DNA from: a virus
Lineage: Duplodnaviria; Caudoviricetes
Length of the DNA: 53,907 nt
Strand: one strand, 5' to 3'
Virus record (IMG/VR): IMGVR_UViG_3300046713_000242
Location: 1 to 53,907 of that record
The stretch's first letter is position 1; each line of letters begins with the position of its first letter. A model generated the notes under the pieces. That model was given only the letters and a program-made list of their open reading frames with translations, made no database searches and was not told the DNA's origin. Both the position numbers and the translations under genes were made by a program. Below are positions 6,867 through 30,053 of the stretch, one piece after another.

Positions 6867-7249
6867 CAGTCTGCCTTCTGATCGCGCGCTCGAGTCATCA
6901 TGGTCGCCTGCACGTCGCGCGGCAGCGTGCTCGGCGCCTCGACCACGATCCCATGCTCGCCGAAATCCCAGAACAGCCACATGCGCTTCTGGTGGTGCAG
7001 GCGGTAGAGGCCCTGGCCATCGTGCGTCACGTCAGCCCAGGACACCGAGCGCCATTCGACGGTGCGCACGACGGCTTCGCGGTGCTGGGGCGCGCCCAGG
7101 TCGAGCACGCTCTGCGCTTCGGCGCGCTGCTCGCGGTATTGCAGCGAGGGGTACATGGGCGCGGTCTTCTGCGAGGCGATCTGAGCGGGCACCTTGCCCG
7201 TTGCTTCGACGATGGCGCCGATCACCTGTAACGCCCGAACTTGGTTCAC
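6866..7249 (-). CDS. Hypothetical protein
   Basis: Translationally coupled on both sides. Confidence 0.65.
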   Translation of the reverse strand: MNQVRALQVIGAIVEATGKVPAQIASQKTAPMYPSLQYREQRAEAQSVLDLGAPQHREAVVRTVEWRSVSWADVTHDGQGLYRLHHQKRMWLFWDFGEHGIVVEAPSTLPRDVQATMMTRARDQKAD

Positions 7250-10257: not shown

Positions 10258-10320
10258 AAGGTGACACCCGCCCCGATTTTGCGCAATACGTTTGCGCAAA
10301 TATCAGGCGGCGCTTAGGCT
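10258..10320. promoter_or_regulatory. Back-to-back divergent leaderless promoters
   Basis: Minus: TTGCGC-N17-CACCTT-N7-ATG(10250); plus: TTGCGC-N17-TAGGCT-N7-ATG(10328). Confidence 0.75.
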
Positions 10321-10327
10321 CCCGCGC

Positions 10328-11377
10328 ATGCCATCAGAACTGTTTCTCACATCGATTCGCGGGATGCACGACACCTCGCGCCGCGCGGACCTCGGCCTGA
10401 CCCCCGCCGGGCTCGAGCAGCTTTGCGCGTGGATCCTGAACGAGTGCGCAGAAGATGCCGCGCGCGCGCCCGAGCCCGCACCGGCTGTGGCCGCGCCCAA
10501 GGCCATCGAAAAGCCCGCCGACCACAAGCAGCTTGAAGAGGCCTACGACCGCGTCACGCACGAGCTCGGGCACACGCGCGACCTACTGATCGCCATGCGC
10601 AAAGCCTGCGTGCCGCTGGACGGCGAGGAAACGCCAGCCTTTGCCATTCGCGTGATGGGGCTCGCTTCGAGCGACATCGGCGAACTCTCCGACGCGCCCG
10701 AACGCGAGACACAGAAACTGCGCGACCTGCTCGGCTCGTGCGAGCGCTCGCGCAACGACTGGAAAGCGCGCTTCGAATCGATCGACCGCCAGGGGGAGGC
10801 CGTGACGCGCGAGCGCGACCGGCTACGCGAGCAGCTCGACGCGCTCAAGGATCTGCGCGGCGTGAGCGCGACCGAAGTGGCGCTGAAAGAGCGCGTCGCC
10901 GAGCTTGAGGGCGAGCTCACGCGCGAGCGCTTGCGCAGCCCCGAGATCATCACGCCGAAGCCGTGCACGCACGAAGGCATCGGCCTGCCTGGTTGCAAGA
11001 TCTGCGACCCGCGCACCGAGAGCCAAGGCGGCCCCCAGCCCGACCTGCCCAGCCGCCATGATGTGCGGATGATCGCGGAAGCATGGATCGGCCCATACAT
11101 CAGACCGGCGTCCGAAGAAAGCGAGCAGCGGCACCTTCTGCCTATGCACACGATCATCGACTTCGGGCTCTCGCTGCTGAAGACGTACGACCCGCGCAAT
11201 CGCCAGATCAAGCCCGGCGACGTGCTGCAGATCGAGCGTGAATCAGGCCTCCCTGCGTTCTTGCTGGTAGAAAATACCGACGACTACGTGCGCGGGCAGC
11301 TCTACACGGCAGAGCCAGGTCGCCACAGGGTGCTGCTCACGAACATCCTGGTGCGTGTCGGCAAGGCCGCTCCATGA
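10328..11377 (+). CDS. Coiled-coil protein with a Cys/His cluster
   Basis: E/R/L heptads; CTHEGIGLPGCKIC. Confidence 0.7.
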   Translation: MPSELFLTSIRGMHDTSRRADLGLTPAGLEQLCAWILNECAEDAARAPEPAPAVAAPKAIEKPADHKQLEEAYDRVTHELGHTRDLLIAMRKACVPLDGEETPAFAIRVMGLASSDIGELSDAPERETQKLRDLLGSCERSRNDWKARFESIDRQGEAVTRERDRLREQLDALKDLRGVSATEVALKERVAELEGELTRERLRSPEIITPKPCTHEGIGLPGCKICDPRTESQGGPQPDLPSRHDVRMIAEAWIGPYIRPASEESEQRHLLPMHTIIDFGLSLLKTYDPRNRQIKPGDVLQIERESGLPAFLLVENTDDYVRGQLYTAEPGRHRVLLTNILVRVGKAAP

Positions 11378-12498
11378 TCCGCCTGGGCACGAAGGACGAC
11401 GACAGCGCGCTGAACCTGCCCAGCGACGTCACCACGCAAGCCATGGCGGTGATCGGGCGCCGCGGCTCGGGCAAGACGTACACCGCGGGCGTGATCATCG
11501 AGGGACTGTTGCGACAGGGCTCGCACGTGGTGGCTATCGACCCGGTGGGCACCATGCACGGGCTCGCGCACCTGGCCGACGGCACGCCTTCCAATCTCGG
11601 CGTGGTCATCTTCGGCGGCGACCATGCGAACGTCGATATCGAAGAAACGCAGGGCGCCGCGGTCGCCATGGTGGTGGTGCGCGAGAACGTCAACGCGGTG
11701 ATCGACGTGTCGCCATGGAGCAACGCCGCGCGACGCCGTTTCATGACCACCTTCAGCGAGACTTTCAACCAGGAGATCAAGCGCAAGCAGCACCCGATCA
11801 CGCTGGTGATCGATGAAGCGCAGCTCTTCCTGCCGCAGAACCCGCCCAAGGGTGACGAACGCATGGTGGGCGCTCTGACGTATTACGTGCGCCTCGGTCG
11901 GAACTTCCGAGGCGGCTGCATCCTGATCACCCAGCGCCCGCAGAGCGTGACCAAGGAAGCGCTGAATCAGTGCGAGGTGCTGATCCTCGGCCAGCTGACA
12001 GGCCCGCACGAGCGTAAGGCCATCGAGGCATGGGTGGTCGAGAACGTCGCCGACGTGGCCGGCGCGCGGCAATGGCTGCGCGAGCTCGTGAGCCTGCCTG
12101 TGGGGACGGCCATGGTGTGGTCACCGCAGTGGCTCAAGGTCTTCGAGAAGGTGAAGATCTCGAAGAAGACCACCCTGGACACGGGCTCGGGCAGCGTGAA
12201 GGTCAGCACGCCATCGGTAGGGAACATCGTGTTGACCGCCAAGCTGACCGAACGCGATATCGCCGAAGTGGTAGGCGAGATCGTAAACCCGGCATCGGAA
12301 GAGCTCGTTAGGTTGCTCGCGCACGAGATCGGCGAGCCGCTGACCGCGCGCTTCCAAAAAGAGAGGCGGATCGCCTATGTGCTGCACCTGTTCGACACGA
12401 ATGGCGGCGGCGCGATCGGAACCATCGCCAACGTCAGCCGCGAGTCGAAGATCGCCATTGTCGAACGCTGGCTTTCCTTCGTGAAGGCGGGGAACTGA
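11374..12498 (+). CDS. HerA/FtsK-superfamily (DUF87-like) ATPase
   Basis: GRRGSGKT, AIDPVG, LVIDEAQ, GRNFRGG..LITQRPQ. Confidence 0.88.
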   Translation: MIRLGTKDDDSALNLPSDVTTQAMAVIGRRGSGKTYTAGVIIEGLLRQGSHVVAIDPVGTMHGLAHLADGTPSNLGVVIFGGDHANVDIEETQGAAVAMVVVRENVNAVIDVSPWSNAARRRFMTTFSETFNQEIKRKQHPITLVIDEAQLFLPQNPPKGDERMVGALTYYVRLGRNFRGGCILITQRPQSVTKEALNQCEVLILGQLTGPHERKAIEAWVVENVADVAGARQWLRELVSLPVGTAMVWSPQWLKVFEKVKISKKTTLDTGSGSVKVSTPSVGNIVLTAKLTERDIAEVVGEIVNPASEELVRLLAHEIGEPLTARFQKERRIAYVLHLFDTNGGGAIGTIANVSRESKIAIVERWLSFVKAGN

Positions 12499-13121
12499 TG
12501 GGCGACTACTACGAGAGCAAGCGCGAGGCCGCGCTCTGGGTGCCCTTCCACGGCGGCAATGGACAAGTGCACATTTGGACGGGCACTGACCTCGGCATGC
12601 CTCAGACCAGCGTGGTCATGGCCCGGCCCATGCAGAGCCCCGCGCATGCTGACCATCCTGTGGCTGATCCTGATCGTGTATCTGGTGGCGGCGTTGCTCA
12701 GCTGGCTGCCGGCGCCGCAGTTCTCGGGGCGCAACCCCGTGTTCTTGATCTTGGTGGTGGTCCTGCTGATCGTGCTGCTGCGCGAGCCGCTACACATTCG
12801 CTGGTAAAGCCACGTCGTTACGACGACTGCGGCCAGTACTCGACCGAGCGGTGCGGTGGCTGCGATGCCTGCCTGGGCATGCAGTTCCCGGACGCTCCGA
12901 CCGAAGAAGAGCACTGCGCAGCGATCGAGCGTCGGCGAATCGAGGATGAGGCAATCAACAAGGCTTACGACGTGCTCACCCACGTGCAGCCCATCCGCGC
13001 GCGCCAGTGCGTGCGGTGTGGCGCGCAGTGGCAGGTGGGGCGCTATGGGCTCGAGCTCGCGCCGCGTGCGATCGTGGGCGCCGCGGCGTTCACCTGCCCA
13101 GACTGCGCGGGGCGGTCATGA
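12498..13121 (+). CDS. Hypothetical Zn-binding protein (CGGCDAC, CVRC...CPDC)
   Basis: TGATG and ATGA coupling at both ends; the middle is overprinted. Confidence 0.55.
   Translation: MGDYYESKREAALWVPFHGGNGQVHIWTGTDLGMPQTSVVMARPMQSPAHADHPVADPDRVSGGGVAQLAAGAAVLGAQPRVLDLGGGPADRAAARAATHSLVKPRRYDDCGQYSTERCGGCDACLGMQFPDAPTEEEHCAAIERRRIEDEAINKAYDVLTHVQPIRARQCVRCGAQWQVGRYGLELAPRAIVGAAAFTCPDCAGRS
12646..12807 (+). CDS. 53-aa two-TM membrane protein nested in another frame
   Basis: MLTILWLILIVYLVAALLSWLPAPQFSGRNPVFLILVVVLLIVLLREPLHIRW with GC3-rich codons. Confidence 0.65.
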   Translation: MLTILWLILIVYLVAALLSWLPAPQFSGRNPVFLILVVVLLIVLLREPLHIRW

Positions 13122-16445: not shown

Positions 16446-17102
16446 TTAGCGTTCCTTTTTGACCGGGACGTGGGGCGGGTTGTTGGTGAATCTGAGGGCG
16501 GGTTTGCCTTGGAAGTCGGGCAGGCGCACGACCGGGAGCGCGTGCCCCGCCAGGTTGACCCTGGCCGACTTGACGTCGAGATCGAGCGCTTCGAGCGCGT
16601 CGCGCGCGTAACGGGCGTGGAGGATGCGCTGCTGCCTGCTGGGGGGATGGTCTTCATGCAGCTGGCGCGAGAGCGCGGCCCAGAACGTCAGGTGTTTGAC
16701 GGGCAGGCGCTCATCGGCGCGGAAGCGGTCGACTTCGCGCCGCATCGGCCCATAGAACGCCTCGAACAGCTCGTTTTTCTTTAGCTTTGTATCGCTCCGT
16801 TTGGCGCGACGCGCCTGGGTGACGCGGTCCATTTGCTGGCGGAAGCGGATGCGGCAGCCGAGCGCGCCCCGCATGACCAGCAGGCGGCCGCAGTCGAAGC
16901 ACAGGGTTACCCACTCTTTGCCGAGGGAGCGGAAGGTGGTGTGCTCGGCGTTGGGCTTTTCGCAGAGCGAGCAGACGCCGCGAACGGCGGTGTAATCCTT
17001 CATTGAGACGAAGGTCCAAGGCCCTCGGGCGGCCATGTCGGCGAGCCCAGACGGCGCGGCGGTTTCGGGGGCGGCAGCGGGTCGAGCTTCGTGATCGGTC
17101 AT
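16446..17102 (-). CDS. Hypothetical Zn-finger protein
   Basis: CSLC...CFDC; ATGA coupling. Confidence 0.65.
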   Translation of the reverse strand: MTDHEARPAAAPETAAPSGLADMAARGPWTFVSMKDYTAVRGVCSLCEKPNAEHTTFRSLGKEWVTLCFDCGRLLVMRGALGCRIRFRQQMDRVTQARRAKRSDTKLKKNELFEAFYGPMRREVDRFRADERLPVKHLTFWAALSRQLHEDHPPSRQQRILHARYARDALEALDLDVKSARVNLAGHALPVVRLPDFQGKPALRFTNNPPHVPVKKER

Positions 17103-17308
17103 GGGGTTGTCTCGGGCAGGGCCAGGCGCTGGCGCGCGAGGGCGTTGAGGACGGCTTGCTTGAGGGCGGACGTGTAGAAGCGGCCGCAGTCGAGGCACTC
17201 GCTATCGAGCGCCATCATGGCGACGTAGCGGCGCCCAGAGCCCCCGCAGCAGGGGCAGGACTGCACCCAGCGGGTGGTAGCGACCATGGGGGTATAGAGG
17301 CCGGGCAT
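17099..17308 (-). CDS. Zn-ribbon protein
   Basis: CPCC...CLDC. Confidence 0.6.
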   Translation of the reverse strand: MPGLYTPMVATTRWVQSCPCCGGSGRRYVAMMALDSECLDCGRFYTSALKQAVLNALARQRLALPETTP

Positions 17309-17616
17309 TAGGCAATCTCCCGCAGCCAGGCGGCGACTCGGCGCGCGCGCTCGATGCTCTTCTCGGTATCCCTGACCAGGTCCGATCCGATGCTGAGCTG
17401 CCTACGCCGCACATCGGCGAGCCAGTTCTCTTCGCGGTCCGCGGACGCCTCCAGATCGGTGATGGCCGAGACCAGCGCGGCTGTATCAGGCTTTTTTGGG
17501 CGTTTGCGCTTGGTGGCGATGACGACCGTTAGGGGGGCATTGCGCACGCTGTCGAGCTCGCCGCCCGGCAGGCAGACGCGGTCGTGATCGGCGCCCTTCT
17601 CTGTTTTCTTGGCCAT
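17308..17616 (-). CDS. Hypothetical protein
   Basis: TAATG coupling. Confidence 0.6.
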   Translation of the reverse strand: MAKKTEKGADHDRVCLPGGELDSVRNAPLTVVIATKRKRPKKPDTAALVSAITDLEASADREENWLADVRRRQLSIGSDLVRDTEKSIERARRVAAWLREIA

Positions 17617-17618
17617 GA

Positions 17619-17801
17619 TCAGGCGAACCAGGGGCCGGCGAGGCCGGCGCGCACGAGTGCCTGACGGTCCACGCCTTGCTCGAGCAGCGCGAAGAAGCAG
17701 TCGCGATCCCCGAACACGCCCGCGGTGTGCTTGTAGCGCTGCGCGTCCCAGAGCCTCTGCACGTCTTGCTTGGTGAGCGTCTTTTTGGGTGCGGTGCTCA
17801 T
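17619..17801 (-). CDS. Hypothetical protein
   Basis: ATGA coupling, GGAGG SD. Confidence 0.6.
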   Translation of the reverse strand: MSTAPKKTLTKQDVQRLWDAQRYKHTAGVFGDRDCFFALLEQGVDRQALVRAGLAGPWFA

Positions 17802-17977
17802 GAGCGAACCTCCGTCGAGAGCGCCCAGATCCCCGAGGGCTCTTGGTCGGCCGAGGTGAAGACCTGCGCGAGCAGCGCCGAGACGGCGGCGAAGGTGTCG
17901 AAGCCGTGGGCGTGCGCCTCGACGGTGTGGAAAGGGTCCTGGGCCACCGCGGCGGCCAGCTGCGCGTCAGAGACCAT
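17798..17977 (-). CDS. Hypothetical protein
   Basis: TAATG coupling. Confidence 0.5.
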   Translation of the reverse strand: MVSDAQLAAAVAQDPFHTVEAHAHGFDTFAAVSALLAQVFTSADQEPSGIWALSTEVRS

Positions 17978-18147
17978 TATGCGGCCTCGCTTTCGAGCGA
18001 GAGACCGAGCTCGGCGCACAGGGCGAGGCCGAGGCGCTCGCTGAGCTCGAAGTCGATGGCCGTAGCCGTCTCTTTGTCCGTGTGAAAGGAAAGGCGCCAG
18101 TGATCCTTCAGCGCCTCGGTGCTCAGCTTGCTCAGTAGATTGCCCAT
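17977..18147 (-). CDS. Small acidic orphan protein driven by repeat copy 2 (moron)
   Basis: 56 aa MGNLLSKLSTEALKDHW...; ATG 7 nt after the conserved leader. Confidence 0.7.
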   Translation of the reverse strand: MGNLLSKLSTEALKDHWRLSFHTDKETATAIDFELSERLGLALCAELGLSLESEAA

Positions 18148-18154
18148 GTCCCCG

Positions 18155-18228
18155 CCCCATCTCTGCCGCGCTTGGCGGCCCCGTAAGAACAATCATCAGC
18201 TATCCCAATACCGTTTGCAAACGGAATC
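18155..18228 (-). repeat. Dispersed promoter/operator/leader cassette, copy 2
   Basis: Identical to 5196..5269. Confidence 0.95.
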
Positions 18229-18233
18229 GAACG

Positions 18234-18572
18234 TCAGTCGGTGCCCAGGTGGGATTGGCTGGTGATTTCGAGGTTCGGGACGATCAGCACTTCGACGCCG
18301 CACCGAAGTACGACCGTGTAGCGGCGGCGCGAGTCTGTAATCGAGGTGATGCGCAGCGCCTTACGCTTCACGAGCTCGGTGAGCAGCCCAAAGACCGCTT
18401 CCACGGCTTCGCGCTTCTCGCCCGGGTAGAGGCTGGGCACGGCGTTGACGTAGCAGAGAATGCCCAGCGGGCGGGCGCTTGGCGGAATGGCTCGCGTCAC
18501 GTTGACGACAGCGCTCAGGTCGACGCGCAGCTGTTCGAACTGCCGGCGCTCTTCGGGGTTTTGGCCGATCAT
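18234..18572 (-). CDS. Hypothetical protein
   Basis: ATGA coupling. Confidence 0.6.
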   Translation of the reverse strand: MIGQNPEERRQFEQLRVDLSAVVNVTRAIPPSARPLGILCYVNAVPSLYPGEKREAVEAVFGLLTELVKRKALRITSITDSRRRYTVVLRCGVEVLIVPNLEITSQSHLGTD

Positions 18573-19024
18573 GGGGCGATCCGAAGCGCGAGTGCGCGCG
18601 GGCGTTCCCACACGTTGGCATCGAAGATCAGCACCACGCCGCATTCGCGCGCGCCTGCCGGCGTGCCTACGGTGTGGTGGTGGCGCGTGTCGTCGATCGC
18701 AGCCCAGCCATCGTTGCGCATCACCTTCATTTTCACGAGCGCATCAAGGCTCATCTTTGACGCGACGAACTCTGCGCCGTCTTTGTCGCGGCGCTTGTCC
18801 GGATGGTAGTGGACGAAGGTGATCGCCAGCGCGAGCGGCAGCGGCGCAAAGCCTTGTTGCAGCGCCAGCCAGCCGATCTTGTGCGTCCATTCTTTCTTGG
18901 CGTCGGCGAAGCCATCGATGCGCTTGCCGTTGGCCTTCGTGAAGCCGCGCGCCTTCTGGTCGATCAGGTCGTTGATCGTCGGCATGATGCCGGGCACCCA
19001 GAGCGCCTTGGGTAGCGCACTCAT
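18569..19024 (-). CDS. RusA-like Holliday junction resolvase
   Basis: PTIN...HPDKRRDKDG....KMSLDALV...NDG motif set. Confidence 0.75.
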   Translation of the reverse strand: MSALPKALWVPGIMPTINDLIDQKARGFTKANGKRIDGFADAKKEWTHKIGWLALQQGFAPLPLALAITFVHYHPDKRRDKDGAEFVASKMSLDALVKMKVMRNDGWAAIDDTRHHHTVGTPAGARECGVVLIFDANVWERPRALALRIAP

Positions 19025-19203
19025 GCCTTACGCCTAGGCAGAAAACGAGTGCACAGGCTGTCGGTGAAGTTGGCAAAAAGCAGCGTGCAATAAGCGTATT
19101 TCCACCAATCTTTGTCGAAAAACAAGCACGCCACGCCGATGCCCAGGGCGACGGCGCCGCTGATCAAGCCAATCCAAAAGAGCAATGCCTTACCGATCGT
19201 CAT
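19021..19203 (-). CDS. Small two-TM membrane protein
   Basis: Two hydrophobic segments, lower GC. Confidence 0.6.
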   Translation of the reverse strand: MTIGKALLFWIGLISGAVALGIGVACLFFDKDWWKYAYCTLLFANFTDSLCTRFLPRRKA

Positions 19204-19514
19204 TGTTCCTCAAGCAGCTTCGCGCGACGGCGGAAGCGCTCGGCGGTGGTGTGCTGGCCGTGGGCGTGTGCGAGCTCGGCCGCCTCGTGCAGAAGCGCGC
19301 TGGTCAGCACCTCTTCGCCGATCGACTGCTCAGCGAAGTGCAGATCCATCAGGTTTGCCGAGACCGTGAGCGCCTCGATCTCAGCGCGGTCGAAGTTGCG
19401 CGAGCTCGGCGCATCGTTTCCCACGCGGTGCGTGAGGTTGGCAATGCGCCGCTGCAGCGTCTGCAAGTGCTTGCGGGAGGGTTTGATCAGGTCGTCTTCG
19501 GCTCTGGTGTTCAT
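19200..19514 (-). CDS. Hypothetical protein
   Basis: ATGA coupling. Confidence 0.6.
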   Translation of the reverse strand: MNTRAEDDLIKPSRKHLQTLQRRIANLTHRVGNDAPSSRNFDRAEIEALTVSANLMDLHFAEQSIGEEVLTSALLHEAAELAHAHGQHTTAERFRRRAKLLEEQ

Positions 19515-19741
19515 GAGGGGGAGTCTATCCGTAGCCTTTGGTGCTGGTAGAGCGGATGCGGAAGCATCTTCACGCACCCGGTGCCGCTGTCTACGGCGCA
19601 ATAATCCGCGGTGAAGACCGGGCGGCCGCCGGCGATGGCCACAATGCGACCGAGCAGCTGGCCGGTGTGCGTGCGCGGCGCGCGCGGGTCGCGCTTGAGC
19701 GCGCGCCTGCACATGCGATCTCTTTGTTTGAAGCTCATCAT
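19511..19741 (-). CDS. Hypothetical protein
   Basis: ATGA coupling. Confidence 0.5.
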   Translation of the reverse strand: MMSFKQRDRMCRRALKRDPRAPRTHTGQLLGRIVAIAGGRPVFTADYCAVDSGTGCVKMLPHPLYQHQRLRIDSPS

Positions 19742-20238
19742 TTTGATCGGACCTTTCCAAAGCTGTTTTTGGTCGTGCCGCAGTCCACCAGCTGAAACCA
19801 GCGCGGGCGCGAATCGGCGATGCCGTGCCAGTGCAGCGAGTCCGGGCATGGGTCCATCACGCGGCCGCGGATCCAGTCCTCGACGTAGGCGCGCGCCGCG
19901 GCGACCTGGCGACCGCGCGCGCTCGCATCACCCGGCGTCAGCACGCGGATCGAGCGCGGGCGTGCGGCATCGCTTTTGAGCGTGGCGCTGTAGCTCATGA
20001 TCCGGCTCGGCGTGTCGCCGTAGCGATCGAGCCTGTGCTGCAACGTCCAGAGGATGGCGGCCCAGTCATAGACCGAGCGATCGGCCTCAGCGACCAGCAC
20101 GCGCGACAGTACGTCTTCATGGCCGCGCCAGGCGCCCGACGGGTGCACGAAGGCCTGCGCCTGGGAGACTGCGGCCAGGAAAGCCACCGACATGGCGAGC
20201 ACGAACAGGCTCAGAAAAAACGCGGTTTTGACTCTCAT
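19738..20238 (-). CDS. Secreted SleB/Hydrolase_2-like lytic transglycosylase
   Basis: Signal peptide (AQA-F), LSRVLVAEA catalytic-Glu helix, DPC...LHWH...PRW. Confidence 0.65.
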   Translation of the reverse strand: MRVKTAFFLSLFVLAMSVAFLAAVSQAQAFVHPSGAWRGHEDVLSRVLVAEADRSVYDWAAILWTLQHRLDRYGDTPSRIMSYSATLKSDAARPRSIRVLTPGDASARGRQVAAARAYVEDWIRGRVMDPCPDSLHWHGIADSRPRWFQLVDCGTTKNSFGKVRSK

Positions 20239-20540
20239 GGTGTCTTTCCTTTCTCGAGCGCAAACGTGATCGCTTCATCGAGCATTTCGTGGTCGACGCC
20301 TTCACCTTGCTGCAGCCCGCGGCGCAGGTTGCCCACGCCGCGGCTGTAGCTCTCGAGCATCAGCGTCCAGAGGATCTCGCAATCCGCGTTGAAGGCGTCC
20401 TCGGTCGAGGTAGGAATGCGCGCGTGGATGCCGCGCACGTAGCGCTCGAGCGTCACGCGCAGCGGGGCGAGCCGCTTGAACACGGCGCGCTCTTCGGCGC
20501 TGATCCCGGTGTGCGGGGTTTGCTGCTGGCGAAAACTCAT
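20235..20540 (-). CDS. Hypothetical protein
   Basis: ATGA coupling. Confidence 0.6.
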   Translation of the reverse strand: MSFRQQQTPHTGISAEERAVFKRLAPLRVTLERYVRGIHARIPTSTEDAFNADCEILWTLMLESYSRGVGNLRRGLQQGEGVDHEMLDEAITFALEKGKTP

Positions 20541-20815
20541 GATTCGATCCCTTCCCCTGTGCGGCAGTCGCTCGCCTTCTTGCGCGCGGCCGCGGCGCGT
20601 GAGCGACAGATCGCGGCGTCTTCTGTCCTGCCCCAAGCTTCCCAGCGCCGCGCCTGATCTTCCCAGCCACGCGCCGTGGCGTCGTAGCGCGGTGCGAGCT
20701 TTTGCATGTGCTCGCGGTCGAGCTTGCGGATCCAGCGGCCGCAGAACACGGCGAAGATGGACACGGCGCACATCCCCGCACCGATGCAGGTCAGCACCGT
20801 TTGAACCCGGCTCAA
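20537..20815 (-). CDS. Single-TM protein
   Basis: TTGA coupling, hydrophobic N-terminus. Confidence 0.5.
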   Translation of the reverse strand: MSRVQTVLTCIGAGMCAVSIFAVFCGRWIRKLDREHMQKLAPRYDATARGWEDQARRWEAWGRTEDAAICRSRAAAARKKASDCRTGEGIES

Positions 20816-21129
20816 TTTGCCCACACTTTCACGGCGTAGCCCTTGATCTCGGTATCGAGCGCGCTCGACACCCTCCACCACGCCCAGAAGTGCACGAGCC
20901 CGACGCCGAGCCACGCGATGCGGCGCAGCCCCACCAGCACCACGATCGTCGGCTTCTGCCCTTCGTCGTGGATCGCAACGGTGGCGCTGGTGAACGCGCG
21001 CCAAGGCACCTTCACGGTCGAAGCCTTGCTCGCCACGTAGAGCTCGAACGCGCGCGTATTGGCGGCCTGTACGAGGCGCTCTTCAGGCCGTAGACGGCCA
21101 TGGATCACTTTTGTCGACTTTCGATCCAT
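20812..21129 (-). CDS. Hypothetical protein
   Basis: Operon packing. Confidence 0.5.
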   Translation of the reverse strand: MDRKSTKVIHGRLRPEERLVQAANTRAFELYVASKASTVKVPWRAFTSATVAIHDEGQKPTIVVLVGLRRIAWLGVGLVHFWAWWRVSSALDTEIKGYAVKVWAN

Positions 21130-21575
21130 GCCTGCGCGCTCTTCGCTGTGATCCATTCACGGTGCTTTCCGGTGGGGTCTTCGCAGACCAAGCTACCCGC
21201 CTCGATGTGGTTACGCAGCGTGCGCTGCGACGAACTCGTCAGAGCCGCGAGAAAGCTCTGGTGCACACGCAGCCCGAGCGCGATGCGCACGCGGGCACAC
21301 GCAGCCTGCAAGAGCAGCCCGAGGGGGCTGTCGGGGAAGTCGGACGGGTCGAACGCCCCCCACTGGCGCGGCGTGGCTGCCGGCGCGCGCAGCCAGTACT
21401 CGAGCGCGCGCTTCACGTCGTTCTCGGCGCCGCTCGCCGTGTAGGTCGCATAATCGTACACGACGCCGATCGCACGCACGTGCAGGGGGAGCCCACAGAG
21501 AACGCGCGCTTGCGTGATGTAATCGGCGCGCGAGTAGTCGCCGATCCGTGGCTCGATTCGAGGAATTCCGCCCAT
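21105..21575 (-). CDS. Protein with a C-terminal HTH (Xis/MerR-like); candidate regulator of the repeat cassettes
   Basis: LAALTSSSQRTLRNHIEAGSL...WITAKSAQAWIE. Confidence 0.65.
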   Translation of the reverse strand: MGGIPRIEPRIGDYSRADYITQARVLCGLPLHVRAIGVVYDYATYTASGAENDVKRALEYWLRAPAATPRQWGAFDPSDFPDSPLGLLLQAACARVRIALGLRVHQSFLAALTSSSQRTLRNHIEAGSLVCEDPTGKHREWITAKSAQAWIESRQK

Positions 21576-21577
21576 TT

Positions 21578-21841
21578 TTACTGCTCTCGTTCTTGATCCG
21601 GGTCGTAACCCGGAACCTGCGCGCGCTTCATGAGCTCGCTGTTTACTGCCCACATGCAAAAGTCGCTGTCGATGTTCGGCCGCCGGCGTCCTTTGAGCCC
21701 GTACGCCTGAAGCGTGCCGCCAACGTAAATCGCGTAACCGTCGTTGCCGTGCACGCGGTGCGTCACTCTTACGGTGACGTAGGGGTATTTGACGTGCGGC
21801 GCGTGCTCGACGTCGAGCACCTGCCAGTCATCGTCGGTCAT
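21578..21841 (-). CDS. Small orphan protein (cassette 3, gene 2)
   Basis: ATGA coupling, lower GC. Confidence 0.65.
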   Translation of the reverse strand: MTDDDWQVLDVEHAPHVKYPYVTVRVTHRVHGNDGYAIYVGGTLQAYGLKGRRRPNIDSDFCMWAVNSELMKRAQVPGYDPDQEREQ

Positions 21842-22113
21842 GGAGCGGGCTTAGGAAGCCGCGGGCCGAGGATCAGCAAGCTGTGATCCCCGAGCACCTT
21901 CGGACTCATGCCCATGTATGCGTACTGCGGAGCGTCCGAAGCAATCAGCGCGATCGTGAGCTCGTTCTGTGACCATTCCTGGCGCAGCACGTCGTACCCG
22001 ATCTCGATCGCCTCATAAGAATCGCCGTAGCGATCTACGTAGGTCGTCGCTGTCCACGTCACGACTCGGGTCTGTCTCTTCAGGCCCGGGTAGGCACTCG
22101 CCAGAATCCCCAT
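21838..22113 (-). CDS. Small orphan protein driven by repeat copy 3
   Basis: ATG 6 nt after the conserved leader. Confidence 0.7.
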   Translation of the reverse strand: MGILASAYPGLKRQTRVVTWTATTYVDRYGDSYEAIEIGYDVLRQEWSQNELTIALIASDAPQYAYMGMSPKVLGDHSLLILGPRLPKPAP

Positions 22114-22291
22114 GCTGTCCCCCATCTCTGCCGCGCTTGGCGGCCCCGTCTTCTATCGATCCTGAGGTCTGGCAATACCGTTTGCAAGCGGAATCATCGA
22201 ATCGGCGAAAGTGATCCGCCTGCTCACCCTCAAGACGGCTCACGCGCCGCTCGAGCTGCTCAAGGCGTATTCGGTCGGCTTTGCCCAGCAC
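22013..22291 (-). CDS. Short coiled-coil ORF reading through repeat copy 3 (possibly interrupted by the cassette)
   Basis: N-terminal RLEQLERRVSRLE looks genuine; the C-terminus is repeat-derived. Confidence 0.35.
   Translation of the reverse strand: MLGKADRIRLEQLERRVSRLEGEQADHFRRFDDSACKRYCQTSGSIEDGAAKRGRDGGQHGDSGECLPGPEETDPSRDVDSDDLRRSLRRFL
22120..22195 (-). repeat. Dispersed promoter/operator/leader cassette, copy 3 (diverged middle)
   Basis: 30-nt leader identical and GATTCCGyTTGCAAACGGTATTG conserved; distal spacer and -10 region differ. Confidence 0.9.
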
Positions 22292-22300
22292 CGCCCCACG

Positions 22301-22813
22301 TTAGGCGGTGAGCCACGCCGGCGGCAAGAGCGTCTGCTTCACGCGGCTCTCGGCCCACCCGCGCACGGCGCTGAGGCCCGCAAGCAGCCAGTGCTCGAAC
22401 GAGAAGCGCTCGACCTGCAAGAGCAGCTGTTCGATCTCGACGCGGTCATATTTCGGGTCTGGCTTGTCGGCGAGCCGCTTGCTGAGCTTGTCGAGCGTGT
22501 CCCACGTCCACGCCAGCGCGCCCAAGCGCTTTGCGTTCTGCGATTCGATGTAAGTGATCTTGTCGCGATAGGCCGAGAAGATGCGGCGCTGATCTGCGTT
22601 TGAGAGCGTCGTCTGCATCACCTCGCGCGCGGCATCCCGATTGCCGAGCTTGCCCAGGTCGCGCGCCTTGTCGATGGCCGTGGCCAGCCACTCCGGCGGC
22701 GCATCGAAGCGCAGCGGCAAGAAGCGATCGAGATGGCGCGCGCCTTCGAGCGCAATGCCGATCGGGTCGTTCAGGTTCAGGATCGACTCTTTATCGGCGG
22801 TTTCTGGCTGCAT
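22301..22813 (-). CDS. Hypothetical protein downstream of the replication initiator
   Basis: Helical ORF overlapping the initiator end. Confidence 0.65.
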   Translation of the reverse strand: MQPETADKESILNLNDPIGIALEGARHLDRFLPLRFDAPPEWLATAIDKARDLGKLGNRDAAREVMQTTLSNADQRRIFSAYRDKITYIESQNAKRLGALAWTWDTLDKLSKRLADKPDPKYDRVEIEQLLLQVERFSFEHWLLAGLSAVRGWAESRVKQTLLPPAWLTA

Positions 22814-23942
22814 TGCGTTCTTCCTGGGCGTCTATCTCGGCCTGTAGGCTGTTCATTTGCTTGGTGAGGTCAGCAAGCTCGGCGCCGAAGTCACCCGCGG
22901 TCATGAGCTCCACACGACGCACGTTGATAGCCTCGATCTGGCTCTTGGGCGTGCGCGCCTGCACCACGCGCAGGTTGGGTGCGAAGTACTTCGAGGGGTG
23001 ATCCGCGAGATGGCGGATCGAGTAATTGCACTTCCGAGACGCGACCCACTCGTCAGCGAAGAACGCGTCGAGCGTCTTCGCCAGGTTCGCCACATGGTCG
23101 CCGGGCACCGATACGAGCCAGTCCACGAGCCGATCCACGTCAGGGCTGCCGTATTGCGTCCAGAGCCCAGGCTGCGTGGTCTGCTCCCAGCGCGCGGCGA
23201 ACTCGCGGATCACCAGCTTGCGGGTGCGGTCGAGTAGCGCTTGGCGGTCCGTAGGCGTGCCGCTGACGCCCGAGAGCGCCGACGCCACGACGCCGGCAAG
23301 GGGCCGCGCTCCGGGCGGCTTCTCGGGGCGCTCAGGGCGCTCGAACCTGCTGAACCCTTCCGGGGGCGCTGCTGCCGCTGCTTCTTCCACGCGCGCAGGC
23401 GCGTCTGAGGGAGATCCAGCGGCGGCTATGGGGGGTAGAGATCCGGGGGCAGAGGGAGATCTCTCTCTCTCTCTGTCTTCCTCTGCTTCTCGTGCGGATG
23501 TCCTGGACGCGTCCGACTTGTCCGCGGATGTCCTGGACGCGTCCGGTGATGGCGATGCCTTTTTTGCGGCGCGCTCATCTCTTTTGCGCTCAGCGTCAAG
23601 AACCTGACGCTTTGTGCGCAGGTCGCGATAGCGCCGGTGGTTGACGACCAGCCAGTAACCGCGCTCCCGAAGCACCCGCCTGCCTTCGTGATCGGGGGTC
23701 GTGCTCTCTGGATCTGGCGCTTCGAGAATCGCGAGCGCCTCAGTGGTTTCCTCAATGGTGAGATTTGCGATCCGAGCGAGATTGCCGACCGTCGCCGCGC
23801 GCACGCGTCCATTGGGGCCAGCAGCAGCCAGCATCGCCACGAAGAGAACGCGCACCGTGCATGGCAGCTGCCAAAGGCTCGAGCCCAATATCGACCCGTA
23901 GATCTTCACGAAGCCGTCGTCGGTGGTGTCGTCCATTCGCAT
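22791..23942 (-). CDS. Phage replication initiator (lambda O-like organisation)
   Basis: N-terminal FVKIYGSILGSSLW...LEAPDPES..PDHEGRRV...YWLVVNHRRYR family motif; internal iterons. Confidence 0.8.
   Translation of the reverse strand: MRMDDTTDDGFVKIYGSILGSSLWQLPCTVRVLFVAMLAAAGPNGRVRAATVGNLARIANLTIEETTEALAILEAPDPESTTPDHEGRRVLRERGYWLVVNHRRYRDLRTKRQVLDAERKRDERAAKKASPSPDASRTSADKSDASRTSAREAEEDRERERSPSAPGSLPPIAAAGSPSDAPARVEEAAAAAPPEGFSRFERPERPEKPPGARPLAGVVASALSGVSGTPTDRQALLDRTRKLVIREFAARWEQTTQPGLWTQYGSPDVDRLVDWLVSVPGDHVANLAKTLDAFFADEWVASRKCNYSIRHLADHPSKYFAPNLRVVQARTPKSQIEAINVRRVELMTAGDFGAELADLTKQMNSLQAEIDAQEERNAARNRR
23454..23545. repeat. Putative replication origin: two 22-bp iterons plus a strand-asymmetric purine/pyrimidine tract
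   Basis: GCGGATGTCCTGGACGCGTCCG at 23494-23515 and 23524-23545; CT-rich tract at 23460-23490. Confidence 0.7.
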
Positions 23943-23947
23943 CCCCC

Positions 23948-24057
23948 TTGCATTTTTCGAAAAACAGTTTCACATTCTCGTTCGCGCAGGTGCGGAAGAC
24001 AGCCGTAGCTGACCCAAAGGGCTCCCTGTTTACGAGACAGGTGAGCCCTTTTATTTT
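23948..24057 (+). ncRNA. Candidate ~75-nt antisense RNA (OOP/ctRNA-like) with its own promoter and terminator
   Basis: TTGCAT-N17-CACATT (23948-23976); hairpin AAAGGGCTC-CCTGTTT/AGACAGG-T-GAGCCCTTT followed by TATTTT (24016-24057). Confidence 0.6.
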
Positions 24058-24167
24058 CCCCCTGGAAGTGAGGCGGATCTACGCCGATCGGGGCGCTGTC
24101 GTCCAGCGCCAGATCATCGAATCAGGCGCGATCCCATGGGTTGCGTATGGTCACGCCGTGACCGCCA

Positions 24168-24368
24168 CTACCCCTCGGTAGGGCTCTTCAGCGCGGGCCC
24201 CGTGACGATGGCCAGCGACAGCATTTCGATCCGCTGCGCGCAGAAAATGCAGAGCTCACAAAGCCGGGGCTTCCCTTCCGGGTTGCGCACCGTCAGCGTG
24301 TTGTAGGGCTTCTCGCCGTCGCGCAGGTGAGCGCAGCGCGGGGGCCATTTGAGCGCCTGTGCGTTCAC
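24168..24368 (-). CDS. Small Cys-rich protein
   Basis: GTGA coupling; CAH...CELCIFC. Confidence 0.55.
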   Translation of the reverse strand: MNAQALKWPPRCAHLRDGEKPYNTLTVRNPEGKPRLCELCIFCAQRIEMLSLAIVTGPALKSPTEG

Positions 24369-24922
24369 GAGACGACGTTGCCAGTGCCGTCGGTCAGGAA
24401 CGTTTTCCCCTTCGAGCGCGGGTCGTCCATGTGCGGCAGGAAGGGGTTGACCGGGTCCTGACTTACCAGCGTATTGCCCTCGCCGATAAAGAACGCGGTG
24501 TTTCCGCCCTTGCGGCGCGGCAATTTGGCCTCGCTGCGATAGCCCACCACGGCTTGGCCTTCGTGGTCGGCCTCCACCGAGATCGTGAGGGTGAGCACGC
24601 CTGACGACTCGCCCTTGATGAGCTTCGCGCGCTTCTTCAGCTCGCCCACCATGTTTTGAAACTGCGCGCTGACCACGTCCATCGCGCCGCCGCGATCGAG
24701 CTTGGACAGCATCGTTAGGAAGGCGCGCCAGTCGCCTCCCTCAATGACCGGCGCCGGAAGCGCGTTGCCCGCCACGCTCAGCGTCTCATCTTCGCCGTCG
24801 TCGTCGTCACCTGGGCCGTCGTCGGTGATCACGCCATCGGCGTCAGCCTCAGGCGGCACCGCCCGCATGTGGCCTTTGCCGTTGCTGGTCTTCCCGTTCG
24901 TTGCCTTTTTCTTTGCGGCCAT
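24365..24922 (-). CDS. Hypothetical phage protein
   Basis: GAGGT SD; G.LTLTI.V....KLP....FF.....L...DP motif common in phages. Confidence 0.7.
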   Translation of the reverse strand: MAAKKKATNGKTSNGKGHMRAVPPEADADGVITDDGPGDDDDGEDETLSVAGNALPAPVIEGGDWRAFLTMLSKLDRGGAMDVVSAQFQNMVGELKKRAKLIKGESSGVLTLTISVEADHEGQAVVGYRSEAKLPRRKGGNTAFFIGEGNTLVSQDPVNPFLPHMDDPRSKGKTFLTDGTGNVVS

Positions 24923-24926
24923 GGTG

Positions 24927-25709
24927 TTACCTCGCGTTTGACAGTGGGGTGATGGTGTCGAGGCGCGCGCGCGCCCTTTGGTACGTCTCGGGGTCTCTCT
25001 CGGCACCGACCGCAACGCGGCCGGTGAGCATCGCTGCGACAAGGGTGGTGCCCCAGCCTGCGCATGGGTCGCACACTACATCGCCGCGGCGGCTGTAGTC
25101 GCGCACCAGCGTCCGCATGATCCAGGCCTCTTTGCCCCCGATCATCTTCTCGCGTGGCTGGCCCTCAGGCAGCACGTAGCCGCCAGAGAGCGCGCCCCAT
25201 TTGAAGAACTCCGCGCCGGTCGGCCTCGATGCCATCACGAAGCCGGCCACCATGTGCGTACCCCACTGGGCCGGTCCGTCGCCCGTCATGCGCACGCGGC
25301 CGCCTGGCACCATGTACGAGAGTGGGGAGAAGCCGTAGCGGCCCACAGCCGCATAGGCCGCCTCGTAGGCTGGGATCAGCTCGTGGTCGCAGAAGCACAC
25401 CATCCAACCCCGAGTGCGCGGGTGCCAAAACTTGACGAACTTGTGCACGTCCTTGGGCGTCCAGGACGTGTAATCGATTGTCTGCCGGCGGTTCTTGCCC
25501 ACGGGGCGCATGTTGCCCGTCGTCTTGTCGAGGCGCAGGCGCTTATCGATCGTCGATTCGGTCGCGTAGCTGAGCTTGCTGCCGTTGTCGTGGCCGTCGT
25601 GGGTGCGCGCGCTGTAGGGCGGGTCGGCCAGGAGCAAATCACACGTCACGTCTTTGAGAACGTCGGCATAGTCGCCCTGGCGGAGGTCGAGGAAGCGCTC
25701 AGACTGCAT
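24927..25709 (-). CDS. Beta-class amino (N6A/N4C) DNA methyltransferase
   Basis: DPPY near the N-terminus; VVCDPCAGWGTT SAM-binding motif near the C-terminus. Confidence 0.9.
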   Translation of the reverse strand: MQSERFLDLRQGDYADVLKDVTCDLLLADPPYSARTHDGHDNGSKLSYATESTIDKRLRLDKTTGNMRPVGKNRRQTIDYTSWTPKDVHKFVKFWHPRTRGWMVCFCDHELIPAYEAAYAAVGRYGFSPLSYMVPGGRVRMTGDGPAQWGTHMVAGFVMASRPTGAEFFKWGALSGGYVLPEGQPREKMIGGKEAWIMRTLVRDYSRRGDVVCDPCAGWGTTLVAAMLTGRVAVGAERDPETYQRARARLDTITPLSNAR

Positions 25710-25980
25710 TTGCGTCGGCCGCCCCGCTCGGGTCCATCATGAGATCCATCAGGCGCCGTTCCTCGCGCTTGCTGCCCCCTGCGAGCGCGCGCGCCACGAT
25801 GACCGCCACGTCGCCACGCACAGGCAGGCTACGGTAGATCTTGCGCAGCGTGGGCGCGCTGACGTCGGTCTTCGCGGCAAGCCGCTTCAGCGCCTTGTCA
25901 CCGTGCTTGTCGAACCACGGTTTCAGAAACTCAGGGGGGTCTCCCTGAAGCTCCCGCCCCCGTCCGCGTGATATTGGCAT
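25699..25980 (-). CDS. Cro-like HTH regulator
   Basis: LKRLAAKTDVSAPTLRKIY; first gene of the leftward early operon; TGG-TAAACC-N7-ATG. Confidence 0.65.
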   Translation of the reverse strand: MPISRGRGRELQGDPPEFLKPWFDKHGDKALKRLAAKTDVSAPTLRKIYRSLPVRGDVAVIVARALAGGSKREERRLMDLMMDPSGAADANAV

Positions 25981-25987
25981 GGCGGCC

Positions 25988-26042
25988 GGTTTACCACGGA
26001 TTTGCGAAAAGCTATTGCGCAAAATCGCGAGCCCTGTACCTT
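25988..26042. promoter_or_regulatory. Divergent early promoter/operator region
   Basis: Plus: TTGCGC-N16-TACCTT-N8-ATG; the reverse complement closely matches 10274-10301. Confidence 0.65.
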
Positions 26043-26050
26043 GCGGGTCC

Positions 26051-27004
26051 ATGCCCGACGCTCCCGCTTACCCCGCCGATCAGCCACAACCCACGCCCGC
26101 GCCACGCCAACCAGGCCCCGAACGCGAGTCGTTCCCGGAATGGCTCAAGGAAGAGATCGCCCAGGGCAGTGACCCGAAGATGCGCCTCGCGCTGCGCCAG
26201 GCGTTGATCCGCGCCATCAAGGCCAGCGTCGGCGTGCAAAAGCAAGGCAGCCGCAACGAAGACCAAAACTACTCGTACCTGGGCCACGCGCAGGCGCTCG
26301 ACGCCGTGCGCGCTGCGATGGCGAACGAGGGCCTCAACATCGAGCAAGTTCTGCTCGAGCCGACCGGAACCGTGATGGTCAACAAGGGCGCTTACGCGCG
26401 CTTTACGTGGCGCGCGATCTACCTGGTGACCCACACCGACGGCGGCATTCTTCCGCGCATCATTCGCGCGTGGACGGGCGACAACGACAAGTCCCCTTAC
26501 GTCGCGAGCACCATGGCCGATCGCGTGATGCTGCTGCGTTTGATGCGTATGGGCGGCAGCAAAGAAGACGACGACAACAACCCCCAAGAAGCGCAGCAGC
26601 AGCAGGCGCGCCCCGCGCAACGTCAGCAGCGGACACCCGCGCCGCGCGCCGCGCCGCAGATCTCGCCCGAGCAAATGAAGGCCGCCCAGGACATGCTCAC
26701 CGAGCTGCTCGAGAATCTGAAGCTGTGCAAAACCAGTGACGCCTTCGTCACCTGGGCACGCATCTATCAGCACGATTACGGGCTTCCCCAGAACATCCAA
26801 AAGCAAGGGTGGACCGAATGGGGGAAGGCCGTGCAGGCGCTCAACTACGCACCCGCCGAGCTCGCCGAACAGGCGCGGCGCGCCGGCAAGGTCAACGACG
26901 GCCCTGCCGATGGGGAGGTGACGTCAGATAGCGAGCCCCCTTTAGCCCCGGCGGGTACGCCCGCGAGCTCACCGCCCAAGGAACCCAGCGAGCAAGCCCG
27001 CTAG
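26051..27004 (+). CDS. ERF-superfamily ssDNA-annealing protein
   Basis: VQKQGSRNEDQNYSY...GDNDKSPYVASTMADR..L motif. Confidence 0.75.
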   Translation: MPDAPAYPADQPQPTPAPRQPGPERESFPEWLKEEIAQGSDPKMRLALRQALIRAIKASVGVQKQGSRNEDQNYSYLGHAQALDAVRAAMANEGLNIEQVLLEPTGTVMVNKGAYARFTWRAIYLVTHTDGGILPRIIRAWTGDNDKSPYVASTMADRVMLLRLMRMGGSKEDDDNNPQEAQQQQARPAQRQQRTPAPRAAPQISPEQMKAAQDMLTELLENLKLCKTSDAFVTWARIYQHDYGLPQNIQKQGWTEWGKAVQALNYAPAELAEQARRAGKVNDGPADGEVTSDSEPPLAPAGTPASSPPKEPSEQAR

Positions 27005-28968: not shown

Positions 28969-29210
28969 GCGGGCGCGCGCCAGCCGGTGCCGTGGTCGGT
29001 ATTTACGTCGACCTGATCGCGCACGTGGCGGTCGGCGACGTGATCCGCACGGGCTCAGGGCGGCGCTACGGCATCGTCAGCGTGCGCGTGCAAGAGCGCG
29101 GCATGCACGCGGGGCGACAGCACCTGCGCTGCCTCGTACTCGGCCCTGACGACGATACCGGCGCGAGCCAGGTCCATCAGATCTACTGGTACCCGCGGGG
29201 GAAGCGCTAA
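28965..29210 (+). CDS. Hypothetical protein
   Basis: ATGA coupling; converges on the holin. Confidence 0.6.
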   Translation: MSGRAPAGAVVGIYVDLIAHVAVGDVIRTGSGRRYGIVSVRVQERGMHAGRQHLRCLVLGPDDDTGASQVHQIYWYPRGKR

Positions 29211-29590
29211 CCTGCCGGCGGGCGCAAGCTGGCGCGGTTCACTCGCTCTACTTCGGCGTCGAGCTTCGTACGCACAACGTCGTCGCTCCACTGCGCCATG
29301 CCGTTCGGCGCGTTGCGGCGCGCGAGCTCGAGTGCGCGCTGCTGCTTGTCTTCGCTCTTCACCCGGGCGCCCTCGGCAATCAGCCGGCGCGAGTCGGCAT
29401 CGATGGCGGCCACCGCATCGCGAATCGCTTGCTCGCCGGCCGCCACGTGCTGGTCATCGATCTTCAGTCCCAGGTTTTCGCGCAGGTATTTGACGCCTGC
29501 TCGGTAGGCGAGGATCAGCACGCTCACGACGATCAACCCGATCAACGTGACTAGCTGCTGTTGCACTGCGGGCGTCAGGATCTCGGCCAT
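29207..29590 (-). CDS. Holin-like protein (LL-H-type architecture)
   Basis: One N-terminal TM followed by AVAAID...KSEDKQQRALE...LDAEV. Confidence 0.65.
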   Translation of the reverse strand: MAEILTPAVQQQLVTLIGLIVVSVLILAYRAGVKYLRENLGLKIDDQHVAAGEQAIRDAVAAIDADSRRLIAEGARVKSEDKQQRALELARRNAPNGMAQWSDDVVRTKLDAEVERVNRASLRPPAG

Positions 29591-30053
29591 GTGTCCCCCG
29601 TTGGCTACTGTTTGTAGCCTCGATCTGCCCCCGCAGTTCCATGTTTTCGTCGCGCGCCGCCCCAAGCAGCGCCCTCAGAGATTCGACCTCGCGCGTCAGC
29701 TTCCGCAACGCATCTTGCGCCTCGGCCGTTTCCTCGAAGCGCTCTTCGGCCAGCCAGGTTGCCTTGTGCCGCTCGAGCTCGGCCGCCACCAGCTTCGCCC
29801 CGAGCTCATCACGCTGCGCCTCAAGCTGGGCGATGCGCTGCGCCATTTGCCCCGAGTAGTCCAGGGGCGTGAGCGCTGGTCGCGGAAGGCGCGCGCCGGC
29901 AGGCGGCATGCTCGAACTGGGCGGCGTGTCCTTGTAGATCTTCGCCAGCCGCTTTGCGTTCCACGAGACCAGCAGCTTGACCGCAAGCCCGAGCCCGGCC
30001 GAGATCGCGCCCACGAAGAGCCCGCCCGCGGTTTCGGGGCTGACGTCGGGCAC
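29454..30053 (-). CDS. TM + coiled-coil protein in the lysis cassette
   Basis: GLFVGAISAGLGLAVKLLVSW, then a long heptad region. Confidence 0.6.
   Translation of the reverse strand: MPDVSPETAGGLFVGAISAGLGLAVKLLVSWNAKRLAKIYKDTPPSSSMPPAGARLPRPALTPLDYSGQMAQRIAQLEAQRDELGAKLVAAELERHKATWLAEERFEETAEAQDALRKLTREVESLRALLGAARDENMELRGQIEATNSSQRGTHGRDPDARSATAASHVDRVDRRERADPRLPSRRQIPARKPGTEDR

Follow-up and report, generated by a model that had tools for sequence, protein, structure and literature searches.

An excisionase/MerR-class winged-helix protein behind one of three palindrome-leader units in the genome of a soil phage

Results

A gene of a long minus-strand array

We analyse ORF156, an open reading frame (ORF) of a phage genome known from the linear IMG/VR virus record IMGVR_UViG_3300046713_000242 (53,907 bp, CheckV completeness 84%; taken whole, this record is our window), together with a repeat unit that heads the operon of this gene and is found at two other places in the window. 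The coordinates of these and other features are collected in Table 1. The genome has a GC content of 65.6%, its minus strand carries nearly all genes, and most of its ORFs fall into no family in scans against PHROGs and Pfam. The original prediction for this locus described repeat copy 3 as followed by two orphan ORFs and then by a protein with a helix-turn-helix (HTH)-like segment at its end, which was taken as a candidate regulator of the anti-CRISPR-associated (Aca) kind. The order of the genes is confirmed: gene calls place ORF91 and ORF87 behind copy 3, the GC content at third codon positions of ORF91, ORF87 and ORF156 (0.76, 0.77 and 0.80) is biased as expected of real genes at a genome GC content of 65.6%, and ORF91 and ORF87 match only themselves among 5.8 billion clustered proteins and nothing in Pfam, PHROGs, NCBIfam or PADLOC.

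These three genes are the beginning of a much longer series. From copy 3 to copy 2 run 12 co-directional genes, including that of a RusA-like resolvase, separated by gaps of at most 14 nt and mostly joined by 4-nt overlaps, so the acr-acr-aca layout that had been proposed, a closed cassette of three genes, is not borne out. Between positions 23942 and 15811 only two gaps are 80 nt or longer (187 and 86 nt), both of them with repeat units, and all others are at most 14 nt; the third repeat unit occupies an 80-nt gap after the terminase gene. The restriction of large gaps to the repeat units agrees with a long array divided up by operon heads or by internal promoters.

ORF156 has no match in PHROGs, NCBIfam or PADLOC and none in Pfam (0 families at an expectation value (E) of 1 or below). 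An exhaustive HMMER pass over 1.84 billion representatives returned 9 proteins at E<=0.001, from which we left P0001 (a 103-aa fragment identical to the window) and P0007 (452 aa, matched in six short stretches) out of the alignment; with P0002 added, the final alignment (A2) has 9 rows with 27-48% identity to ORF156. P0002 to P0006 are 35-48% identical to ORF156 over the full length and P0008 to P0010 27-36% identical, so that ORF156 has eight relatives and the upstream ORF91 and ORF87 have none. Profile searches of viral, metagenome and genome contigs retrieved no locus of an ORF156 relative, and tblastn against phage and plasmid records gave no match. Judged by its sequence, ORF156 is a member of a small uncharacterised family. 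As a separate observation, P0007 has six distinct stretches that match residues 36-71 of ORF156, which suggests that a portion of the N-terminal domain recurs elsewhere as a tandem repeat.

Table 1. Features of the window, with strand and remarks where available (pI, isoelectric point; pI and length refer to the encoded protein).
Feature	Coordinates	Strand	Remarks
ORF65, zinc ribbon, copy-1 operon	4094-4291	-	65 aa; Pfam Ogr_Delta E 0.01, 16.2 bits against 26.3; Zn_ribbon_recom E 0.005
Repeat copy 1	5196-5269	-	perfect palindrome 5252-5265, 2 nt past large terminase stop; first ORF 88 aa, acidic
Large terminase	5268-6980	-	PHROGs/Pfam
Repeat copy 2	18155-18228	-	perfect palindrome 18211-18224, 9 nt past upstream stop; first ORF 56 aa, acidic
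RusA-like resolvase	18569-19024	-	PHROGs/Pfam
Degenerate palindrome-like site	20797-20810		3 mismatches; 1 nt past stop of the gene after ORF156
ORF156	21575 (ATG) to 21105	-	156 aa, pI 9.1; ATG 2 nt after ORF87 stop
ORF156 residues 102-156, modelled winged helix	21108-21272	-	helices 106-113, 117-126 and 144-155; wing ~131-142
ORF156 residues 1-101, modelled helical domain	21273-21575	-	helices 16-26, 30-44, 51-63 and 84-99
ORF87	21841 (ATG) to 21578	-	87 aa, pI 5.7; ATGA overlap (4 nt) with ORF91, translationally coupled
ORF91	22113 (ATG) to 21838	-	91 aa, pI 5.7; first gene behind repeat copy 3
Repeat copy 3	22120-22199	-	palindrome 22178-22191 (1 mismatch), variable 28 nt, block 22120-22149, 6 nt to ATG
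DNA methyltransferase	24927-25709		PHROGs/Pfam
Small Cro/XRE-like ORF, divergent early region	25699-25980	-	assigned by eye; no Pfam match at E<=10
Major head protein	52369-53748		PHROGs/Pfam

The C-terminal domain is modelled as a winged helix

The AlphaFold2 model of ORF156 obtained with alignment A2 has a predicted local distance difference test score (pLDDT) of 84.6 and a predicted template-modelling score of 0.82, and it divides the protein into two domains. The second of these, residues 102-156, is folded in the model as a winged helix, with strands near residues 131 and 141-142. Comparison with known structures by VIA-align, a tool for which Z values below 8 are middling, gives Pukovnik Xis (4j2n) at Z 7.9 with a root-mean-square deviation of 2.2 Å over all 54 of the 54 residues of 4j2n, followed by BldC (6amk) at Z 7.0, the small-terminase and Rpp N-domains at Z 6.3, TipAL, SoxR and other MerR DNA-binding domains at Z 5-6.5, and P2 Cox (4lhf) at Z 4.9. 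The Xis, BldC and MerR matches all lie over model residues ~97-156, and 19 of the top 25 are DNA-binding domains of the MerR, Xis, GlnR/TnrA, small-terminase/Rpp, Par or RacA type. Foldseek ranks the same folds first (4j2n with probability 0.99 and E 0.16), none of them at E<=0.001.

Sequence comparison points the same way at lower significance. HTH_17 is found below threshold in five of the nine family members (best E 0.015) and MerR in one, P0002 (E 0.0036, 17.5 bits against a gathering score of 28.2); neither ORF156, which has no match of its own, nor its relatives reach the Pfam gathering scores for HTH_17 or MerR. A search of the Protein Data Bank (PDB) with the family profile gives 8 sequences at E<=10, among them P2 Cox (E 0.17) and Xis gp37 (E 0.5). 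We accept the winged-helix fold because the structural matches cover whole domains and agree with one another and with the weak sequence matches. The HTH-like segment noted earlier thus becomes, in the model, an excisionase/MerR-class winged helix, and we consider it very probable that ORF156 binds DNA.

The rest of the protein sets it apart from the proteins that it resembles. Unlike in excisionases and MerR proteins, the winged helix stands C-terminal to a novel helical domain of 100 residues with no recognisable fold or family; residues 1-100 alone give only template-modelling (TM) scores below 0.5 in the Atlas, and the whole of ORF156 gives TM 0.5-0.6 to unnamed and TniQ-like clusters. The architecture of the MerR family is absent, the winged helix being the last 55 residues with no coiled coil or effector domain after it, and, unlike for excisionases, no integrase gene is detected as a neighbour of ORF156. 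Among the structural relatives, P2 Cox is also a phage transcriptional repressor.

A three-copy unit of palindrome and leader

The unit behind which ORF156 lies is, in our view, the more intriguing object of the two. It is ~75 nt long and present three times, each time on the minus strand, with a constant order: a 14-bp palindrome, CCGTTTGCAAACGG, 26-28 variable nt, a 30-nt invariant block, 6-8 nt, and an ATG. The palindrome is perfect in copies 1 and 2 and carries one mismatch in copy 3; at up to two mismatches it has 3 matches in the genome against 0.22 expected, a number reached in none of 100 shuffles. The block is identical at 30 of 30 positions across the copies and contains a hairpin (stem 5 bp, loop 5 nt) and a G-rich Shine-Dalgarno (SD) sequence. 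The two modules never occur apart, and relaxed searches of the phage genome found no fourth copy of either. Behind the three units stand mutually unrelated genes, the first of each small and acidic to mildly acidic (pI 5.7, 4.7 and 4.6). Unrelated genes behind modules that are always paired are as predicted for a regulatory unit.

Read from the sequence, the centre of the palindrome is a -35-like TTGCAA, 17 nt beyond which copies 1 and 2 have GATGAT and copy 3 has CAGGAT, and the invariant block begins 7-9 nt past this -10-like hexamer. The small hairpin of the block is the sole hairpin predicted in all three copies. A search of the 53,907-nt window against Rfam gave 0 matches, and exact DNA-pattern scans for the repeat in viral contigs and genome contigs gave none either.

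We also considered and set aside a degenerate palindrome-like site behind the gene that follows ORF156 as a fourth palindrome; at its level of mismatch the site is one of 6 matches against 2.86 expected, and 6 are reached in 7 of 100 shuffles, which is chance level. A nut/put-like antitermination RNA was rejected, there being no stable or covarying structure, as was a MerR-type activator working on the promoter spacer, since the -35-like hexamer is overlaid by the palindrome, upstream of which nothing is conserved.

Genome context and other possible nucleic-acid binders

Besides the genes in Table 1, the PHROGs and Pfam scans identified baseplate and tape-measure genes and, as plus-strand genes, an Erf-like annealing protein and an exonuclease. 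No integrase family at significance and no portal family were detected among the scanned ORFs of this 84%-complete record. The record is circularly permuted: the terminase (5268-6980) and the genes downstream of it exit at the low end, and the head protein (52369-53748) and the tail genes enter at the high end. A megablast of positions 17000-26000 against phages gave no match, and a search with the large terminase gave one locus (L004), 22% identical, which was left unused.

The same phage DNA is present in 24 metagenome runs from soil, rhizosphere and roots, none of them recorded as RNA. Contigs from four of these runs (X12, X16, X21 and X24) are of the same genotype, with repeats that hold no informative variation. 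In run X12, contigs of this phage end at or beside repeat copies 2 and 3 (18084-18199; 22130-22137), as is expected if identical repeats of 30-74 nt break short-read assemblies.

A plus-strand island (10292-12807) inside the minus-strand array may be a phage-borne defence module. Its ORF 11374-12498 (+) resembles a HerA/mad8-like ATPase (PADLOC mad8 E 1.6e-16 and HerA 1e-15; Pfam DUF87 1.4e-7), and its ORF 10292-11377 (+) has a weak LmuB-like match (E 4e-4).

Several ORFs other than ORF156 could bind nucleic acid. In the operon behind copy 2, ORFs 17099-17308 and 16446-17198 (both -) have paired Cys motifs typical of zinc ribbons and are possible nucleic-acid binders; the paired-Cys ORF of 250 aa in this operon is very basic (pI 10.7). 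For the Cro-like ORF 25699-25980, a single-sequence AlphaFold2 model (pLDDT 54.5) was too poor to use. Upstream of this small early ORF, at 25980-26060 (-), we find an 8-bp palindrome, TTGCGCAA, with a near-copy 14 nt later; the pair may be operators of an early repressor, and its half-site spacing is unlike that of the 14-bp palindrome.

Discussion

ORF156 as a proposed regulator at the palindrome

How could one gene of a 12-gene array be connected to three units, two of them outside its own operon? The explanation that we favour is that ORF156 is a phage DNA-binding regulator acting at the palindrome. Each ~75-nt unit would be an internal promoter with its leader, in which the palindrome CCGTTTGCAAACGG is centred on the -35-like TTGCAA with a weak -10 element 17 nt downstream. 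Transcription would start near the first base of the invariant block, which would supply the message with the 5-bp hairpin and with the G-rich SD sequence 6-8 nt before the ATG. ORF156, made from the copy-3 operon, would bind the palindrome, probably as a dimer, and occlude RNA polymerase, and the outcome would be negative feedback on its own operon combined with trans-repression of the other two. The gene, the repeats and their geometry are observed directly and the fold comes from the model; what we infer from these is that the units are promoters, where transcription starts, that ORF156 forms dimers, and all of the binding.

Of the ORFs in view, ORF156 stands out as the best candidate for a factor reading the palindrome, because none of the 40 other window ORFs scanned against Pfam at E<=1 matches an HTH family; we also count in favour of the regulator role that the protein is basic (pI 9.1), that it has relatives where ORF91 and ORF87 have none, and that it is encoded inside an operon headed by one of the three units. 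For the explanation as a whole we estimate a probability of roughly 0.3, and that ORF156 binds the palindrome is more likely wrong than right. A number of observations hold the estimate down. That the protein binds the palindrome or the hairpin is something that we purely infer, and its own operon is the one headed by the mismatched copy. Winged helices of the excisionase class often recognise direct repeats, to which they bind as monomers or filaments, instead of palindromes, and ORF156 is without the C-terminal coiled coil that dimerises MerR regulators. A consensus scan found no sigma-70-type promoter at any copy (at best 8 of the 12 consensus positions agree, where the scan asks for 9), the sigma-70 consensus being possibly not that of the host, and the RNAs of the three units fold no better than their shuffles (z 0.46, -1.03 and 1.56). 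Finally, the other two operons have zinc-ribbon ORFs that could be the binders instead, and 16% of the genome is missing.

Units that may need no binder

The palindrome of copy 1 stands 2 nt, and that of copy 2 stands 9 nt, past the upstream stop codon, which is where a terminator-like stem-loop would be placed. This raises an alternative that we rate as rather unlikely: the units need no phage-specific DNA binder but are composite intergenic modules, comparable to the promoter early stem-loop (PeSL) cassettes of T4-type phages or to the start-associated sequences (SAS) and extended start-associated sequences (ESAS) of Cluster K mycobacteriophages, and ORF156 is an unrelated DNA-binding protein. 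Against this alternative, no U-tract follows the palindrome, and the minimum-energy fold includes its hairpin in just one of the three copies; moreover, in a genome of 65.6% GC, a perfect 14-bp palindrome with an AT centre has the look of a protein site.

The likeness to SAS/ESAS (Pope et al. 2011, PMC3203893, for which we rely on part of the text throughout) is close in several respects. The invariant block with its SD sequence ends 6-8 nt before the ATG, and SAS lie 3-7 bp before start codons and have an SD core; in both cases a conserved asymmetric SD block stands a few nt before the ATGs of unrelated non-structural genes, has inverted repeats and a variable spacer ahead of it and keeps one orientation (PMC3203893). 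The differences concern number and form: three copies here against 11-19 SAS per genome, a block of 30 nt against 13 bp, and one 14-bp palindrome, perfect in two of three copies, against two 17-bp imperfect inverted repeats; also unlike SAS/ESAS, one copy of the unit lies in the late region (PMC3203893). The authors of that work themselves favour DNA-binding proteins for the inverted repeats (PMC3203893).

PeSL cassettes, as described in the portion of PMC4122927 available to us, likewise combine short repeated intergenic stem-loops and promoter modules that flank orphan genes, and the genes behind our units are unrelated and mostly orphans, like PeSL-flanked ORFans (PMC4122927). PeSLs are also hot spots of modular gene exchange in T4-type phages (PMC4122927). 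Unlike a PeSL, the stem-loop here is weak, has no U-tract and comes with no sigma-70 consensus match, and we found no evidence of recombination between the copies of the unit (PMC4122927).

A possible other factor at the palindrome

It is also conceivable, though we think it unlikely, that the palindrome is an operator for a different factor and that ORF156 acts elsewhere, whether as a recombination directionality factor, as an architectural protein or otherwise. Taken jointly, and at this same low level, the candidates for such a factor are, within the record, ORF65, the zinc-ribbon ORFs behind copy 2 and the early Cro-like ORF, and, beyond it, a gene in the 16% of the genome that is missing or a host regulator. 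ORF65 has a sub-threshold match to Ogr_Delta (E 0.01), and the Ogr/Delta proteins of P2 and P4 activate several late promoters through dyad-symmetry elements. Copy 1 lies in the late region, directly after the large terminase gene, a position that suits an activator of late genes better than an early autorepressor. Structurally, moreover, ORF156 is matched best by excisionases and small-terminase or Cox-type domains. Every one of these rival candidates, however, is sub-threshold or assigned by eye; an excisionase would have no integrase partner among the scanned ORFs of this incomplete genome; and a palindrome centre at ~-33.5, counted from the predicted start site, suits repression and not class-I activation.

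Relation to Aca systems

The original prediction went further and read the locus as an anti-CRISPR (Acr) operon. We regard it as very improbable that ORF91 and ORF87 are Acr proteins and ORF156 their Aca, the founder of a new Aca family. The broader version, in which ORF156 founds an Aca-like family on an excisionase-class winged helix and from one operon controls three anti-defence operons over 17 kb by binding, in the manner of Aca2 and Aca1, both the -35 palindrome in DNA and the invariant 30-nt leader with hairpin and SD sequence in mRNA, seems to us equally far-fetched. If it were true, the new family would be built on an excisionase-class winged helix instead of an XRE-type HTH.

What recommends the comparison is the layout. 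Small acidic-to-neutral orphan ORFs stand upstream of a more conserved HTH gene, and an inverted repeat lies in the putative promoter of the gene's own operon (the palindrome with one mismatch, 65 nt upstream of the first ATG), followed by a conserved hairpin in the 5' untranslated region (UTR), as in the Aca1, Aca2, Aca10 and Aca12 operons (PMC13551039, of which, as for PMC9765179 below, a part of the text was available). In the layout that Feussner et al. 2026 describe for Aca regulators, the promoter is overlapped by an inverted repeat, the start site is immediately followed by an RNA hairpin, and the start codon has a conserved position (PMC13551039). In Marinomonas spartinae, DNA and RNA motifs in three pairs precede three operons, only one of which contains aca2 (PMC13551039), so that the idea of one regulator over three operons has a precise precedent. 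Our units thus resemble those of multi-operon Aca loci (Aca2, Aca1, Aca4, Aca12 and Aca14) in having an inverted repeat at a putative promoter, a conserved 5' UTR hairpin and a fixed start-codon position, and ORF156, like an Aca, is encoded downstream of small genes with no assigned function.

The proteins themselves look unlike. No sequence or fold relation between ORF156 and Aca proteins was found, Aca chains being absent among its 8 PDB sequences at E<=10 and its top 50 fold matches. All of Aca1 to Aca12 stay below 150 aa and have Pfam HTH-clan matches (PMC9765179), and AcaFinder operates with the same two properties (<150 aa and a Pfam HTH-clan match at E<1e-3; PMC9765179); ORF156 has 156 aa, its HTH at the C-terminus, and 0 Pfam families at E<=1. 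The Pfam examples named for Aca1-12 in the available text are HTH_24, HTH_3, HTH_29, KORA, DUF1870 and YdaS_antitoxin, with no MerR or excisionase family among them (PMC9765179), and Aca14 is a ribbon-helix-helix protein where ORF156 is modelled as a winged helix. The motifs differ as well: here they span 17 kb and the predicted start site lies 26-28 nt past the DNA motif, as against neighbouring operons and 10-15 nt for Aca (PMC13551039).

Nor do the neighbouring genes speak for an Acr operon. Pfam, PHROGs, NCBIfam, PADLOC and the PDB gave no Acr or Aca homology, no dedicated Acr library or Aca HMMs having been searched, and, unlike in Aca operons, these general library scans found no known acr relative at the locus. 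The operon extends over 12 genes, RusA among them, and the majority of small orphans in phages are not Acrs. Elsewhere in the window, a match of ORF 29207-29665 (-, 152 aa) to AcrF2 (Pfam E 0.18, 12.5 bits against a cut-off of 27) was treated as chance. What survives of the Aca-like label is therefore a real HTH gene behind one of three palindrome-leader units; the label itself, with no Acr homology and a protein outside the AcaFinder definition, is without support, and an anti-CRISPR role of the neighbouring genes, which we hold to be most improbable, forms no part of our main claim.

Implications

If ORF156 does not bind the palindrome, it is one more uncharacterised phage winged-helix protein, and the question shifts to the three-copy promoter-like unit. 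If it does bind, the guilt-by-association logic by which anti-defence genes are sought would reach a new class of regulator, and the ~10 orphan genes behind the three units would be flagged as co-regulated and possibly as counter-defence cargo of an uncultivated soil phage.

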